DNA of 64,000 nucleotides from Elusimicrobiales bacterium (GTDB taxonomy: Bacteria; Elusimicrobiota; Elusimicrobia; Elusimicrobiales; UBA9959). The notes under the pieces were generated by a model that worked only from the letters and a program-made list of their open reading frames with translations, was not told the origin of the DNA and made no database searches. This document shows, piece by piece, positions 32,622 to 39,738 of the stretch. The DNA is taken from positions 7,566 to 71,565 of the forward strand of contig JAMPXK010000003.1 of the NCBI GenBank assembly GCA_023701245.1, in the 5' to 3' direction. The number at the start of each line of letters is the position of its first letter. The stretch's first letter is position 1. The position numbers and the translations under genes were made by a program.

Positions 32622-32629
32622 AACTCCGC

Positions 32630-32781
32630 CCCCACGAACGGGGCGGAACGCAAAAACAGGGTCGCTGCGGTGTCGCTTCGCTCCACCCGCACACCGTGCT
32701 CGCCCTTCCATGTCTCGGCCCTCGCGCTTACGCAAGCTCGGGCCTCCGACACGGTTTTGCTAACCCGCCCCGTTCATGGGG
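32630..32781. repeat. structured intergenic repeat, copy B
   Basis: Outer stem: CCCCACGAACGGGGCGG (32630-32646) pairs with CCGCCCCGTTCATGGGG (32765-32781). Inner stem: GCAAAAAC with GTTTTGC. Core block TCGGCCCTCGCGCTTACGCAAGCTCGGGCCT matches copy C at 28/31 positions. Confidence 0.8.
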
Positions 32782-33609
32782 TCAGGTGTGTTTAGATTCG
32801 CTTGATATCAGTTGCTTGAGGCGGGACTCGAGGGCGGCGCGGAAGCCGTCCTCTACGTTGCGCTGTCCCTTGGAAATGCCGTCGCGGAAAGCCGCGAAGT
32901 ACGGCTGCAGGCGCCCGGCCTGGTCGGTGACGGGGAAGAACAGCAGTTCGCGCAGGGCGCCGCGGACCAGGTCCGGGGACAGGGAGAGGAATTCCTGGGA
33001 GAAACCCGAAACCACCGGCACCGGGTATTCCGCGAGGTAGAGGTTGCCGGCAAGTTCCTGCTCGCCGGCCTCTATCGCCAGCTTCATGCGCCTGGAGGCC
33101 GCCGCGAGGGCGCCGCGCATGGACTCCAGCCGTTGCGCGTCCTTCACCAGCACCGAGGCGTGCTCCAGGGTCTTGAAATATCTTTCAGCCGAAGCCAGTT
33201 TCACCGGCCGCGGGCCCAGCGCCTCCTGCCCCTGCGTCACCCGGCAGGACCGCAAACCGGCCGCGGAGAACGAAACCAGGCGCTCGCCGTGCAGCGCGAC
33301 CAGGCCGCGCACCGGCCTGGGGAAGCAAAAACCGGAAGGTTCCCAGGTCATGCAGCGCTCGAAACGCAAACGGCCCAGGAGGAGGGGGAAGATCTGCGCG
33401 AGGACTTTAGCCTGGGGACCGGTTGGGACCCCGGTGACATACAGCGCGAGGCGCCGGCAGGTACCGTAGGCTTCGATCCCCACGAAGGGCAGGGCGCGGA
33501 CGGCGAATTCCTGCGCGGCCAGCTTACCGAGCTGTTCCACGGCGGAGCGCACGGCGCCGCCGGGGAGATTCTCCGCCAGTATCTCCAGGACCGCGTCGCG
33601 CGCCGTCAT
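32782..33609 (-). CDS. truncated GlyRS beta-subunit homolog (N-terminal ~270 aa only); possible relic or pseudogene
   Basis: 275 aa; aligns by eye to the E. coli GlyS N-terminus (EILAENLP, YGTCRRLALYV, MTWEPSGFCFPRPVRGLVALHG, LAEYPVPVVSGFSQEFLSLSPDLV). Lacks the remaining ~400 aa. ATGA-coupled to the upstream GlyQ-like ORF. Confidence 0.6.
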   Translation of the reverse strand: MTARDAVLEILAENLPGGAVRSAVEQLGKLAAQEFAVRALPFVGIEAYGTCRRLALYVTGVPTGPQAKVLAQIFPLLLGRLRFERCMTWEPSGFCFPRPVRGLVALHGERLVSFSAAGLRSCRVTQGQEALGPRPVKLASAERYFKTLEHASVLVKDAQRLESMRGALAAASRRMKLAIEAGEQELAGNLYLAEYPVPVVSGFSQEFLSLSPDLVRGALRELLFFPVTDQAGRLQPYFAAFRDGISKGQRNVEDGFRAALESRLKQLISSESKHT

Positions 33610-34109
33610 GCGGCCTCCCCGGAGTGCAGTTCTCCGTAGGTCAGGCGCCCGGCCCAGGAGAGTTCCGCGGCCGAGCGTTTGCGCTGGGACACCAGCGCCA
33701 GGCGTTCAAGCACCACCACGATCTCCGCAGAAGCCCGCGCAGCGGCGGCCTTGTAAACGAAACCGGCCAGCGGCTGGCCGTCCAGCAGCACGTTCCAGCC
33801 GGCGCCTTCGGCCGTGCCGCCGGGCCCGTCGGAAGGCAGCCAGCGCAGGTCGTGCTCGGACCTGTCTATGCCGACGGCCCGCAGGGAATCCAGGAAAGCG
33901 CGGCGCGCTCCGTCGGGGGCCGGCTTCAGGAGGACGCGGTAGCGGTAAAGGCCGGGCAGGCCGTCCGGGGCGGGGCCGCGGCGAGCGGCCCCGGCGAGAC
34001 AGAGCGGGCCGGCAAAATCCGCGCGGCCGGCGGCGCCCGGCGGCAGCAGGGCGCAGCCCTGCCGGGCCCAGTAGCGGTCTAATTTTAAGATTATGTCCTG
34101 AAAATCCAC
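33606..34109 (-). CDS. truncated, degenerate GlyRS alpha-subunit homolog; possible relic or pseudogene
   Basis: 167 aa, GTG start. FQDIILKLDRYWARQGC, YRYRVLLKPAPDG, GAGWNVLLDGQPLAGFVY and VLERLALV match GlyQ blocks. The motif-2 region is shortened and the C-terminal domain is absent. Confidence 0.6.
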   Translation of the reverse strand: MDFQDIILKLDRYWARQGCALLPPGAAGRADFAGPLCLAGAARRGPAPDGLPGLYRYRVLLKPAPDGARRAFLDSLRAVGIDRSEHDLRWLPSDGPGGTAEGAGWNVLLDGQPLAGFVYKAAAARASAEIVVVLERLALVSQRKRSAAELSWAGRLTYGELHSGEAA

Positions 34110-34166
34110 GGTACCTCGGCCGGGCTCATGCCGGCAGGCTGATATTGTACATTTTTGCCGGCCGGG

Positions 34167-34793
34167 TCATTTCACGAAAGGCAGCGTGCGCAGGTCCACC
34201 CCGAGGCTTTCGGCGAAAACCCGCCGGCACAGCCCGTCCACGAATTCTCCGGCCGCGGGGTCGGCTTTAAGCCCGCGCACCGCTTTCCACGAACCGGCGT
34301 GCAGGGCGTCCCAGAGCTCCGCGTCGGGGCCGGCCGCGGTCTCCCGGAAGCCGAAACCGGCCAGGTCCAGGGCGCGCAGGGTGAAGGCGCGCCGCAGCCA
34401 GAAAGCGTCCCCGTGCTGGTCCAGGTCGTAAAGCGCCCCCAGGAGCAGGCCGTACTTCTCCGGCGAAGGGCTCTGCGCGGGGGTAAGCTTGTTCACCACT
34501 TCGCAGTAATGCATGGCCAGGTAGAGACTCTCCAGGTCGCGGCGGATGGCGCCGAACGCCGAGAGGGTGCGGCCGCCGGTACAGACGGGGAAGTTGGAGC
34601 CTTTCTTAAGGAAGAACCGGTAGTCGCCCCAGGTAAGCGCCTCGCTGAGCGCCCGCAGTTTGCCCTTGGCCAGGCGGACGCTCTTGAAGTTGACCTCCAG
34701 CTTGCCATGCTCCAGCGTGAAGACGGTGACTATCCTGTCGTTCTCCCTCAGGGGGCGCCGCTGCAGCACAATGCCGTAATCGCAGAAGATCAT
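34167..34793 (-). CDS. recO: DNA repair protein RecO
   Basis: Track ORF runs to 34922, but RecO-like sequence starts at [26 protein letters not shown] (ATG at 34793). Confidence 0.85.
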
Positions 34794-34897
34794 TCCCGCT
34801 ATTCTACAAATTTGCGCGCGGCGCGGCTGCCGGACGGAGGGCCCGGCATTATGGTAAAATTGACCTCCGGACAGCGGAACTCGAGGGAGACTATATA

Positions 34898-36286
34898 ATG
34901 CCTGCGACGACAATGGATTCACTGGTAAATCTCTGCAAACGGCGGGGATTCATTTTTCAGAGCTCGGATATCTACGGCGGCCTTCAGGGCGTCTACGATT
35001 ACGGCCCGCTGGGCGTGGAGCTCAAGAACAACCTGAAAGCCGCCTGGTGGCGGGCCATGGTCTACGAGCGCGACGACATAGAAGGTCTGGACGCGGCCAT
35101 CCTCACGCACAAGTCCGTGCTGAAGCATTCCGGCCACGAAGCCACCTTCTCCGACCCGATGGTGGACTGCCGCAAATGCAAGAGCCGCTGGCGCGCCGAC
35201 CAGATAAAGGACGGCAAGTGCGAGAAATGCGGTTCCGCCGACCTCACCGAGGCGCGGCCGTTCAACCTGATGTTCAAGACCACCGTGGGCCCCGTGGCCG
35301 ACGACGAGCATTACGCCTACCTGCGGCCCGAGACCGCCCAGGGCATCTTCTGCAATTTCAAGAACGTCATGGACTCCACGTCCAATAAACTGCCCTTCGG
35401 CATAGCGCAGATAGGCAAGTCCTTCCGCAACGAGATAACCCCCAAGAACTTCATCTTCCGGGTGCGCGAGTTCGAGCAGATGGAACTGGAATTCTTCGTG
35501 CTGCCGGGCACGGACGAGGACTGGCACACGAAGTGGGTGGAGAGCCGCGTGGCCTGGTGGCGGGAACAGGGCCTGGAGAGCGACAACCTGCAGCAGTTCC
35601 GCCAGCCCAAGGAAGAGCTGGCCCATTACTCCAAGGCCACCGTGGACATACTCTACAGGTTCCCGCACGGCATGGAAGAGCTGGAAGGCGTGGCCAACCG
35701 CACCGATTTCGACCTGGGCTCGCATTCCAAGAACCCCCAGGAACTCGGCCTGACGGCCAAGGTGGACGAGAACGCGGATTCCGTGGTGAAGCTTACCGCC
35801 CCGGACCCGGTCACGCAGAAGCCGCTGGTGCCTTTCGTGATAGAACCTTCGGCCGGCGTGGACCGCGGCGTGCTCGCGGTGCTGACCGAGGCCTACACCG
35901 AGGAGAAGCTCGAGAACGGGACCGAGCGCATCGTCCTCAAGCTCAAGGCGCACCTCGCGCCGATCAAGGTAGCCGTGATCCCGCTGGCCCGCAACAAGCC
36001 CGAGATCGTGGCGAAGGCCAAAGAGATAAAGGACGCCCTGCTGAAGCTGGGCATAGGCCGCATCTACTACGAGAACTCCGGCAATATCGGCAAGAGCTAC
36101 CGCCGTCACGACGAAGTGGGCACCCCGCTCTGCGTCACCGTGGACTTCGACACGATAGGCAAGGGGGAGAACAAGGACCTGGAGGGAATGGTCACCATCC
36201 GCGACCGCGACACCATGAAGCAGGTCCGCGTCCACGCCTCCGCGCTGGCGGACCACATCGCTGGTTATTTCAGGACCGCGCGCTAA
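34898..36286 (+). CDS. glyQS: glycyl-tRNA synthetase, homodimeric alpha2 (eukaryote/archaeal-like) type
   Basis: 462 aa; [35 protein letters not shown], class II motifs and C-terminal anticodon-binding domain. An alternative start at 34913 (MDSLVNL) is possible. Confidence 0.95.
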
Positions 36287-36302
36287 GGCCCCGGCCCGCT
36301 TT

Positions 36303-36331
36303 TTGCAAAAAGCGGCCATTATTTATATAAT
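36303..36331 (+). promoter_or_regulatory. candidate rpmH promoter (TTGCAA-17-TATAAT), -10 ends 9 nt before the ATG
   Basis: TTGCAA at 36303-36308, TATAAT at 36326-36331, ATG at 36341; the -35 lies inside hairpin CCGCTTTT-GCA-AAAAGCGG (36297-36315). Confidence 0.55.
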
Positions 36332-38691: not shown

Positions 38692-39738
38692 ATGAGAGAA
38701 ACGAAGACAGAAGCAAAAACCATACAGGACGCCGTTGAAAAAGGCCTGGCCGAACTGGGCCTCCGGCGCGACCAGGTTGAAGTTGTCGTAGTTACCGAAG
38801 GCACCCGCGGCTTCCTCGGCATCGGCGCGAAGAAAGCCTGCGTGATCCTGCGCGAAAAGCGCTGGGGCTCCGGCTCCGGCCGCGAAGAGCACCGCGGAGA
38901 GCGCGGCGGCGGCAGGCGCGAAGGCCGCGGCGGCAGAAGCCGCGGCGGAGAGCGCGGCGGCAGCAGAGGCGGCCGCGGCGGGGACCGCGGAGAGCGCAGC
39001 AGCGCCCCCAGGCGCCCCGGCCGTTACGGCTACGAAGACGCGCGCCTTCCTCCCCCGGAAGAGCACCGCGAAGAACACCGCGACGACCACCGCGAAGAGC
39101 GCCACGGGCGCGACGACCACCGCGGCCACCGGTCGGACCGCATCTACAAAGAAGAACCCCTCGCCGCGGACTACCTGGCCATACAGCCGGCCCAGGACCC
39201 CGTGGAGCACGCCAAAGCCGTGCTGGCCAAGCTGGTTTCGCTGATGGGCATGGAAGCCACCGTGACCGAAGCGAAGCTCGACACCGCCGAGAACCTGCTG
39301 TTCATCCGCTTTGACTGCGCCGATCCGGCCGTCTTCACGGAAGAGAACGGCCGCGGCCTGCAGGCCCTGCAGTTCGTGCTGAACTCCATAGTCAGCCGCA
39401 AGCGCGAGCCGCACCTGGCCCTGCGCCTGGACACCGGCGGTTACTGGGACAGCAAGGAGAAAGAGATCTCCCGCCGCGTGGAAGAGGCGGTTAACGACGT
39501 GAAAGCCACCAGCCAGCCGCACCGGCTGGACCCGATGCCGGCTTCCATGCGCAAGATAGTGCACAACCTCATAAAGGCCAACTATCCCGGCATGGAGACC
39601 GTTTCCGAAGGCGAAGGCCGCTGGCGCAAGGTCGTGATCCGCAAGGTGGACGGCCCCCAGGCAGCCGAACAGGCCCCTGAGCAGCCCGCCGCCCAGCCGC
39701 AGGAGCAGCCGGCCGAGCAGACGACCGAGCAGAAGTAA
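38692..39738 (+). CDS. jag: Jag/KhpB RNA-binding protein (Jag_N-KH-R3H) with ~100-aa RGG/His-Arg-Glu-rich insert
   Basis: 348 aa; Jag_N-like N-terminus, C-terminal KH/R3H (LDPMPASMRKIVHNLI); conserved position after yidC. Confidence 0.85.
   Translation: MRETKTEAKTIQDAVEKGLAELGLRRDQVEVVVVTEGTRGFLGIGAKKACVILREKRWGSGSGREEHRGERGGGRREGRGGRSRGGERGGSRGGRGGDRGERSSAPRRPGRYGYEDARLPPPEEHREEHRDDHREERHGRDDHRGHRSDRIYKEEPLAADYLAIQPAQDPVEHAKAVLAKLVSLMGMEATVTEAKLDTAENLLFIRFDCADPAVFTEENGRGLQALQFVLNSIVSRKREPHLALRLDTGGYWDSKEKEISRRVEEAVNDVKATSQPHRLDPMPASMRKIVHNLIKANYPGMETVSEGEGRWRKVVIRKVDGPQAAEQAPEQPAAQPQEQPAEQTTEQK

Follow-up and report, generated by a model that had tools for sequence, protein, structure and literature searches.

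A 64,000-nucleotide stretch of an Elusimicrobiales genome (contig JAMPXK010000003.1 of assembly GCA_023701245.1; hereafter the window) carries a pair of short genes, GlyQ' and GlyS', which are remnants of both subunits, alpha and beta, of bacterial glycyl-tRNA synthetase (GlyRS). They lie in the ancestral recO-glyQ-glyS position next to an intact GlyRS of the alpha2 type, keep the same ends throughout a clade of Elusimicrobia, and are under purifying selection. The domains and residues that they have lost lead us to infer that the pair cannot aminoacylate tRNA-Gly and is not a glycine-tRNA ligase. We consider it fairly probable that GlyQ' and GlyS' form a selected, non-aminoacylating alpha'beta' module, probably a non-catalytic pseudoenzyme that serves for binding.

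Homology and gene arrangement

A preliminary description, made from the sequence alone, had recognized the two open reading frames (ORFs) as GlyQ and GlyS homologues. Searches with the GlyRS alpha and beta profile families, which it had proposed as a check, bore this out and allowed the surviving domains and residues to be mapped. In the Pfam profile search, GlyQ' matches PF02091 (E = 1.1e-25, 90.9 bits) and GlyS' matches PF02092 (E = 7.8e-47, 160.8 bits), and the significant sequence matches of both in the Protein Data Bank (PDB) are solved GlyRS alpha and beta chains only. Both proteins stay below the NCBIfam equivalog cut-offs, GlyQ' with 90.7 vs 369 bits for NF006827 and 83.1 vs 361 bits for TIGR00388, and GlyS' with 160.4 vs 300 bits for TIGR00211. 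The parts of the locus are as follows (nt, nucleotides; aa, amino acids).

33606-34109, minus strand: GlyQ', GTG start, 167 aa, GlyRS alpha remnant
32782-33609, minus strand: GlyS', ATG start, 275 aa, GlyRS beta remnant
33606-33609, minus strand: ATGA stop/start overlap of GlyQ' and GlyS' (4 nt), which couples translation, read from the sequence
33614-33620, minus strand: GGGGAGG, Shine-Dalgarno-like, 4 nt 5' of the GlyS' ATG and within the 3' end of GlyQ'
34114-34117, minus strand: GAGG, Shine-Dalgarno-like, 4 nt 5' of the GlyQ' GTG
34167-34793, minus strand: recO, probable 208-aa form (from M44 of a 251-aa ORF), first gene of the ancestral recO-glyQ-glyS unit
34898-36286, plus strand: alpha2-type GlyRS, 462 aa, intact, between rnpA and recO and divergent from recO
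32623-32649, minus strand: terminator-like hairpin from a consensus scan only, about 130 nt past the GlyS' stop, in the gap that separates GlyS' from the convergent Nudix gene

The gene directly upstream of GlyQ' on the same strand is recO, as had been described, with RecO_N and RecO_C domains and a TIGR00613 match of 91 bits; the recO-glyQ-glyS synteny is confirmed by these profiles and by the conserved order in all loci discussed below. The recO ORF was listed as 34167-34922. A start at M44 (position 34793) is likelier, giving 208 aa as in related loci, and the RecO_N/RecO_C and TIGR00613 matches begin at aa 44-47 of the 251-aa ORF. With this start, recO and the alpha2 GlyRS gene do not overlap.

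An open frame alone is no evidence here, because the antisense strand of the pair also bears a 275-aa ORF in a region of 65-73% GC. Chance ORFs in GC-rich DNA were rejected as an explanation of the pair on its Pfam homology and on selection. Across the region, real genes are shadowed by long antisense ORFs of up to 466 aa, among them those at 32812-33639 (plus strand), 33608-34270 (plus strand), and 34919-36319 (minus strand); such ORFs are typical artefacts of GC-rich DNA that gene callers could take up.

Conservation of the short pair

Relatives of GlyQ' make up 42 further clusters (157-189 aa, 53-82% identity) and those of GlyS' 46 further clusters (mostly 256-279 aa, 52-80% identity), in both cases with the same ends. 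Comparing the recO locus in related genomes, as had been suggested, yielded full-length, intermediate, and short forms. With one genome scanned per species, 47 loci were found, all from Elusimicrobia. The short pair is present in 11 of them (L001-L010 and L026, from GTDB species genomes), one locus (L013) combines a GlyQ of 274 aa with a GlyS of 277 aa, and the remaining loci have full-length recO-glyQ(~290)-glyS(~692). A metagenome scan gave the same picture, with the short pair in 6-10 loci. No second glyS was detected in the short-pair genomes by the per-species pattern scan. A "short glyS" of 289 aa in L044 was rejected as a truncation, being an artefact of a masked run of N.

The genes are intact and end at the same places in all 12 short-glyS genome loci and in all complete metagenome loci. 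An NTGA overlap joins the two genes in 12/12 short-pair loci examined, a GGAG(G) precedes the GlyQ' start at fixed spacing in 13/13 loci, and a GGAGG-like site precedes the GlyS' start in 11/12 short-pair loci. Termini are identical and gaps are in frame across genomes in which recO is only 75-84% identical.

Domains retained and lost

Escherichia coli GlyS is divided into B1 (residues 1-65 and 125-215), B2 (66-124, which contacts the tRNA elbow), B3 (216-340), HD (341-540), and ABD, and its tight contacts with alpha are made by B1 and B3 (PMC8464048). HMMER alignments against solved chains place GlyS' residues 7-61 on residues 317-371 and residues 63-264 on residues 433-637 of 7LU4, and residues 69-264 on residues 130-327 of E. 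coli GlyS (7eiv_C). GlyS' 1-62 therefore corresponds to about E. coli GlyS 1-62, and its residues from about 65 to 265 to about 127-327. An internal deletion of about 60 aa (a 61-residue gap) coincides with B2, and the protein breaks off close to the end of B3, before HD. Because the alignments to PDB chains fall on the published E. coli domain limits, GlyS' is exactly B1+B3. The preliminary description had seen in it the first ~270 residues of GlyS; the truncation holds, whereas a simple N-terminal piece does not, since B2 is deleted internally and the protein ends at about E. coli residue 327. In the naming of a later preprint, GlyS' retains the "body" and "unknown domain 2", and the tail, HD, ATL, and ABD are gone, which are all the elements shown there to read tRNA-Gly.

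GlyQ' consists of the class II core only, with the motif-1 helix, both motif-2 strands joined by a shortened loop, the central sheet, and motif 3. It lacks the GAGT glycine-binding loop (a deletion of about 16-20 aa; alpha residues ~20-40) and the Trp-bearing amino-acid loop, and its C-terminus lies right after "LTYGELH", so that it has neither the linker nor the C-terminal three-helix domain. In GlyRS alpha, the C-terminal domain supplies 58% of the alpha2 dimer interface. The shortened motif-2 loop and the missing C-terminal domain had been noted at the outset; the loss of the GAGT and Trp loops comes in addition.

Single-chain AlphaFold2 (AF2) models were built from family alignments for GlyQ' (pLDDT 87.0, pTM 0.84) and GlyS' (pLDDT 90.4, pTM 0.84). 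The only strong Foldseek matches were GlyRS alpha chains for the GlyQ' model (TM 0.75-0.83) and GlyRS beta chains for the GlyS' model (TM 0.79-0.87). Residues 36-43 of GlyQ' ("PLCLAGAA") form a strand in the model, which suggests that the first motif-2 strand is retained and that the larger deletion takes out the preceding GAGT loop and helix.

The top Foldseek match of the GlyS' model was PDB 9a71_B, an integrative crosslinking model that pairs butyrate kinase with GlyS; it is a hint, from the data of others, of protein partners of GlyS beyond GlyRS. Two proteins of low-GC organisms, P0224 (639 aa) and P0250 (627 aa), are GlyS chains that lack B2 (the tail) only and are otherwise full length. 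Judged by these sequences, some working GlyRS enzymes may do without B2.

Catalytic and tRNA-contact residues

In E. coli GlyRS, glycine is bound by T39, Q82, Q84, W121, and E162, which are absolutely conserved in (alpha-beta)2 GlyRS. ATP and Mg are held by alpha R64, D67, R69, R76, E134, E141, and R169 and by beta R326 and D329, and the CCA end is contacted by alpha W121, E122, T125, N256, R269, and R277. Alanine changes at the glycine, ATP, and Mg sites cause 11- to 985-fold losses. The fate of these positions (E. coli numbering) was surveyed over 43 short GlyQ' sequences. At the glycine site, the loops with T39 and W121 are deleted, Q82 is replaced by Arg in 39/43 and Q84 by Arg in 31/43, and the equivalent of E162 is retained in 35/43. 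At the Mg/gamma-phosphate sites, 41/43 have Gly for R76 and 38/43 have Pro for E141, E134 varies, and beta R326 and D329 are not conserved in GlyS'. All six CCA contacts of alpha are absent, as are all tRNA-binding parts of beta, namely the B2 elbow contact, the HD/ATL contacts with the acceptor stem and U73, and the ABD contact with the anticodon. The erosion of motifs first reported for the window is thus seen in glycine, Mg/gamma-phosphate, and CCA residues across the family.

Compared with a functional GlyQ/GlyS, the pair falls short in equivalog scores, in glycine-binding residues, in ATP/Mg ligands, and in tRNA-binding domains; what it shares with one is the predicted class II alpha core fold and the B1+B3 platform of beta. 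That it still serves the synthesis of glycyl-tRNA, either by itself as a minimal GlyRS or by assisting the alpha2 enzyme, is hardly credible to us. Public annotation does call both proteins so, the window proteins being 100% identical to entries from an Elusimicrobiales metagenome-assembled genome (MAG) labelled "glycine--tRNA ligase subunit alpha/beta", and in vitro activation of glycine has been reported for GlyRS alpha fragments of urzyme size. Yet glycine-binding residues are absent or replaced, the tRNA-binding domains are all gone, the scores lie far under the equivalog cut-offs, and an intact, highly constrained alpha2 GlyRS adjoins the pair in every case.

Purifying selection on both genes

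The ratio of nonsynonymous to synonymous changes (dN/dS, or omega), which the preliminary description had proposed to estimate, was calculated by the Nei-Gojobori method on five phylogenetically independent close pairs with dS 0.3-0.9, and indicates purifying selection on both ORFs in all five. For GlyQ' dN/dS was 0.24-0.34 (P for neutrality 1e-5 to 4e-8) and for GlyS' 0.19-0.28 (P 1e-10 to 4e-14). In the same columns, omega was 0-0.19 (median about 0.05) for full-length GlyQ and 0.04-0.21 (median about 0.10) for full-length GlyS. Closest genome comparisons gave 0.06-0.12 for the alpha2 GlyRS, 0.15-0.22 for nudix, 0.14-0.33 for yidC, and 0.12-0.46 for rnpA. The constraint on the short pair is of the same order as that on its ordinary neighbours nudix, yidC, and rnpA.

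Retention was counted over those surviving columns whose conservation among 26 full-length relatives is 90% or more, a column being scored as kept when at least 60% of the short forms have the same residue. The ancestral residue is kept in 102/158 columns of GlyS' and 51/122 columns of GlyQ', and a new residue has become fixed at 15 positions of GlyQ'. The most conserved stretch of GlyS' (~aa 225-261), FFPV..GRLQPYFAAFRDGxSKGQRNVExGFRAALE, is inherited unchanged from full-length GlyS and sits in B3, the domain that roofs the alpha cleft. This conservation lends indirect support to a surviving alpha-beta contact.

The first of two readings in the preliminary description was that nothing but the rarity of stop codons in GC-rich DNA keeps the frames open. 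The genes would then be a functionless, decaying relic that looks intact because stops are rare in 70% GC DNA and the time elapsed is short. We regard this as very unlikely, even though long spurious ORFs such as the 275-aa antisense frame are common here, the catalytic motifs are eroded, the constraint is looser than on full-length GlyQS, and composition shifts under GC pressure. The marks of a pseudogene, i.e., neutral dN/dS, frameshifts or stops, and patchy loss, were not found. Instead, the five independent pairs give a dN/dS of 0.19-0.34, with P as low as 1e-14, and termini, in-frame gaps, Shine-Dalgarno sites, and NTGA coupling are kept among genomes that have diverged to 75-84% identity in recO. 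The truncation points are domain boundaries rather than random positions, the AF2 folds are confident, and the 274/277-aa intermediate is itself strongly constrained (GlyQ omega 0.08). The boundaries shared by at least 12 species-level genomes, the selection, the translation signals, and the folds together refute the rare-stop explanation. Purifying selection on the short forms and their conservation across a clade are also what the preliminary description had named as grounds against a relic.

Displacement by the alpha2 enzyme

The complete alpha2-type GlyRS that had been noticed divergently adjacent to recO scores far above its NCBIfam equivalog cut-off (PRK04173, 590.7 vs 312 bits) and is presumed to be the working glycine-tRNA ligase. 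All loci share the order yidC-yidD-rnpA, recO-glyQ-glyS, and then (nudix), an omp85-like gene, and nadE. The alpha2 gene is a clean insertion at the rnpA/recO junction. It occurs there in the window, in 12/12 short-glyS genome loci, and in 6/6 further metagenome short-glyS loci in which the junction is visible, as against only 2 of about 24 full-length loci (L038 and L042); the other approximately 22 full-length loci and the outgroup lineages lack it at the junction. Among short-pair genomes the alpha2 GlyRS is 89-97% identical.

Loci L038 (6953-12076) and L042 (6500-11767) carry full-length GlyQS together with the inserted alpha2 gene, both intact, and their GlyQS shows no relaxation (omega 0.07-0.10 for GlyQ and 0.14-0.155 for GlyS). 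Loci L013 and L075 represent the intermediate type (274/277 aa), whose GlyS is already B1+B3 and whose GlyQ keeps the C-terminal domain, W121, and the motif-2 strand with RR, while GAGT, the motif-2 loop, and E162 are lost. The intermediate type is under strong selection (omega 0.08 for GlyQ and 0.25 for GlyS). Neighbor-joining (NJ) gene trees of both proteins place the short forms and L013 in one clade with a bootstrap of 100 and a long stem, with L013 as sister to the rest. On the simplest reading, the alpha2 enzyme was gained first, followed by a period of redundancy, a single loss of the tRNA-binding parts of beta, and later the loss of the alpha C-terminal domain.

Non-orthologous displacement, proposed in the preliminary description, is supported by the alpha2 insertion in all short-glyS loci, by its absence there in outgroups, and by the redundant loci L038 and L042. 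That it was "caught in progress" is true of the clade, in which GlyQS only, GlyQS with alpha2, the 274/277 intermediate, and the short pair all occur, and is not true of the window genome. The locus state differs even between nearest relatives (flank bootstrap 100; 80-99% protein identity): L022 has the full-length genes without alpha2 and L008/L009 the short pair with alpha2, and L020 and L038 differ in the presence of alpha2. These differences point to recombination between lineages, with allelic replacement, or to repeated gain and loss at the locus. The "species" tree from five flank genes has backbone bootstraps of 2-25, which is too poor to order these events.

Other truncated GlyRS-like pairs in Elusimicrobiota

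When 1.8 billion representatives were searched with a profile, further GlyS-like proteins without B2 and HD/ABD emerged, all from Elusimicrobiota. Two types occupy the recO slot: L079/L080 (L079:6088-7843; GCA_022703115.1) with a GlyQ of 303 aa and a GlyS of 280 aa, and L077/L078 (L077:5171-6864; GCA_016218545.1) with 277 and 287 aa. In L077 and L079, the alpha2 GlyRS is absent from the rnpA-recO junction, the place that was inspected. Their alpha subunits keep the ATP-site residues and have an altered glycine site, with T39 replaced by V or L and Q82/Q84 by R/R or S/H; in L077, Q82 and Q84 are both Arg, as in the window type. A third type (L074, 195-5442; L081, 2-4554; L082) is paralogous and does not lie beside recO. 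Its GlyQ (280-284 aa) has largely intact catalytic residues and reaches 327 bits against the NCBIfam glyQ model, and its GlyS (321-323 aa) lacks B2. Pfam scores of the L077, L079, and L074 alpha subunits are 282-302 bits. L081 comes from the same MAG (CAZYFL01) as L016, whose glyQS locus is normal and full-length.

Neighbours of the L074/L081-type pair encode radical SAM proteins (STM4011-like), a PqqD-family peptide chaperone, an aminopropyltransferase-like protein, and a NodU-like carbamoyltransferase, and the pair may activate glycine independently of tRNA, as a module of a peptide or natural-product cluster. A functional link to the carbamoyltransferase near L074 and L077 was rejected, since the L077-type enzyme also adjoins full-length glyS in L015, L017, and L056 and reflects synteny.

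The truncated types do not all group together in the NJ tree. This makes more than one origin of the alpha + B1+B3 architecture probable, although long-branch artefacts may contribute to the scatter. Such recurrence argues for alpha + B1+B3 as a stable, usable unit. The rewritten pocket of L077/L079 and the radical-SAM/PqqD context of L074/L081 suggest that the module is an evolvable device for activating or binding amino acids or other acids outside translation. We tentatively propose, as possible rather than probable, that Elusimicrobiota have repeatedly turned bacterial GlyRS into a tRNA-independent module of alpha core and B1+B3, of which the window pair is the most reduced, with a new selected function (sensing of a ligand or partner, or new ligase chemistry) in the remodelled alpha/B3 cleft.

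Function of the window pair

The history that we favour begins with an alpha2-type GlyRS gene that was inserted between rnpA and recO and would have taken over the charging of tRNA-Gly. The old enzyme was not lost but trimmed at domain boundaries to a minimal two-protein module. In this process, the alpha core shed its glycine site, Mg/gamma-phosphate ligands, CCA-binding residues, and dimerization domain, and beta was cut to B1+B3, the domains that clamp onto alpha and roof its cleft, with both genes remaining translationally coupled and kept by purifying selection. The ancestral alpha-beta interface would still join GlyQ' and GlyS' in a compact alpha'beta' complex, which would act by binding a ligand or partner in the remodelled, conserved alpha/B3 cleft without catalysis. 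The second reading of the preliminary description, a neofunctionalized heterodimer derived from an aminoacyl-tRNA synthetase (aaRS), is favoured by the purifying selection and by conservation in the clade; the heterodimer and the new function themselves stay conjectural.

Several observations weigh against a non-catalytic binding module. Constraint on the short forms is 2-5 times weaker than that on full-length GlyQS in the same columns. The GC content of the short genes is 0.71-0.72 vs 0.60-0.63 in full-length homologues at similar GC3, and Ala+Gly+Pro make up 0.31-0.34 of residues vs 0.18-0.20, with a drift towards Ala/Gly/Pro/Arg. As composition has drifted so strongly, much of each short protein is evolving freely. 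Some nucleotide-site residues survive in GlyQ', namely the motif-3 Arg (R169) in 42/43 and the E162-equivalent, together with an Arg (37/43) and an Asp (37/43) that are possibly R64 and D67 of motif 2, where the alignment is ambiguous, the rewritten region being aligned differently by HMMER, MAFFT, and the AF2 strand assignment. Because of these residues, we can only infer the absence of any catalysis, and some nucleotide binding may persist. The B1 loop with W150/R159 is deleted in the truncated types P0098 and P0100, and no single conserved surface has emerged that all truncated forms share. Finally, the gene neighbourhood is ancestral synteny and offers no hint of a partner or ligand.

The shift in GC and composition is, in its own right, a clear footprint of mutational GC pressure on amino acids once constraint is relaxed.

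The surviving residues raise the alternative, second in our ranking and in our view unlikely, of an enzyme with a new adenylating or ligase activity that acts on a new, probably anionic substrate without tRNA, two new conserved arginines having replaced the glycine-binding glutamines. The alpha core plus the N-terminal part of beta is the minimal adenylate-forming unit of bacterial GlyRS. The motif-3 Arg, the E162-equivalent, and possibly the motif-2 Arg and Asp are retained in 81-98% of GlyQ', and Q82 is Arg in 39/43. In the same direction, L077 and L079 keep a full ATP site with a changed glycine site, and radical SAM and PqqD genes surround a truncated paralogous pair whose alpha is near-intact. 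Against this, the Mg ligands E134 and E141 and the gamma-phosphate ligands R76 and beta R326 are lost in the window type, sites at which a single alanine change is costly in E. coli, and the motif-2 loop is shortened. The Pfam score of GlyQ', at 91 bits, contrasts with the 282-302 bits of the L077, L079, and L074 alpha subunits, and no biosynthetic genes adjoin the window locus, which shows ancestral synteny only.

An RNA-binding factor comes third and seems slightly less likely still. Here the B1 "body", which is RRM-like and homologous to the body of the CCA-adding enzyme, would bind the tRNA acceptor arm or another RNA through a basic B1+B3 surface without charging it. B1 touches the acceptor stem backbone in the E. 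coli complex, most window-type GlyS' keep W150 and R159 of the H3-S7 loop of B1, on which aminoacylation depends in E. coli, and both proteins are basic, with a median pI of 9.4 for GlyS' and a pI shift from 5.1 to 8.5 for GlyQ'. However, the net positive charge of B1+B3 has gone down from +11 to +5, the W150/R159 loop is dispensed with in the related P0098 and P0100, and the missing beta domains and alpha CCA contacts comprise every element of affinity and specificity for tRNA-Gly, so that of the known tRNA contacts those of B1 with the backbone alone are left. A non-catalytic binding pseudoenzyme remains first in our ranking.

Other features of the window

No tRNA gene was found in the whole 64-kb window by a tRNA scan, and no Rfam family, including T-box or other leaders, at gathering thresholds. 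A scan for sigma-70 promoters gave no match in the region. Downstream of yidC, a Jag/KhpB-like gene (38692-39738, plus strand) has a low-complexity insert at about aa 60-150 that is highly charged and rich in Arg, Gly, Glu, and His.

Comparison with known systems

The pair resembles bacterial GlyRS in its orthologous descent in the recO-glyQ-glyS slot, in its folds (TM about 0.8), in the coupling of overlapping genes, and in the retention of motif 1, motif 3, and most B1/B3 core positions. It differs in lacking the GAGT and Trp loops, the alpha linker and C-terminal domain, the beta B2, HD, ATL, and ABD, and the ligand contacts. The annotation as "glycine--tRNA ligase" is misleading for reconstructions of metabolism and of the translation apparatus.

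Literature searches for a short GlyQ/GlyS pair or for GlyRS evolution in Elusimicrobia found no description, in agreement with the preliminary description, which knew of no such pair. A "cryptic function" of bacterial GlyRS has been raised from its X-shaped structure (PMC8464048). No model fully explains the patchy bacterial distribution of the two unrelated GlyRS types (bioRxiv 10.1101/2023.05.29.542759). In that study, Haloactinopolyspora alba was the one proteome of 542 with both types, a co-occurrence described as extremely rare; L038 and L042 likewise carry both intact, whereas in the window genome the bacterial-type enzyme is neither whole nor deleted but reduced to a non-synthetase remnant. 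The clade displays a whole replacement series at one locus, from GlyQS through GlyQS with an alpha2 enzyme, equally constrained, and the 274/277 form to the 167/275 pair. Displacement need not end in deletion, and the parts that join alpha and beta have been kept by selection, which implies that bacterial GlyRS has, or easily gains, a second role independent of tRNA charging. Such a role would be the cryptic function raised from the structure.

Another natural, much shortened GlyRS-alpha ORF is the GlyCA "urzyme", an 81-229-aa fragment of Streptococcus GlyRS alpha in an arctic fox assembly (PMC11602164). GlyCA is 99.75% identical to normal GlyQ, a recent truncation or contaminant with motifs 1-2 intact, no beta partner, and no sign of conservation or selection. 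The window pair, by contrast, belongs to a family that is old and conserved, has a beta partner, and shows eroded motifs.

Also among the closest parallels are aaRS-like proteins such as HisZ (a HisRS paralogue and regulatory subunit of ATP phosphoribosyltransferase), AsnA, EpmA/PoxA, GluQRS, and POLG2, in which a class II fold remained under selection after the loss of aminoacylation and the tRNA parts were lost or went unused (a 2022 review and general knowledge). By its sequence, the window pair would be a pseudoenzyme of this kind, with a synthetase fold under selection and apparently no capacity for aminoacylation. HisZ-type proteins are duplicates beside a retained housekeeping copy and have a known partner or substrate, whereas the window pair sits in the orthologous slot, with no linked partner gene at the locus, and is the original orthologue converted in situ after displacement, has two subunits, and has lost most ATP and amino-acid ligands. 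Conversion of an orthologue in place, two subunits, and conservation across a clade set it apart from both the HisZ-like and the GlyCA concepts. Since none of the aaRS-like proteins in the 2022 review derives from bacterial-type GlyRS, GlyQ' and GlyS' would be the first aaRS-like protein of that origin.

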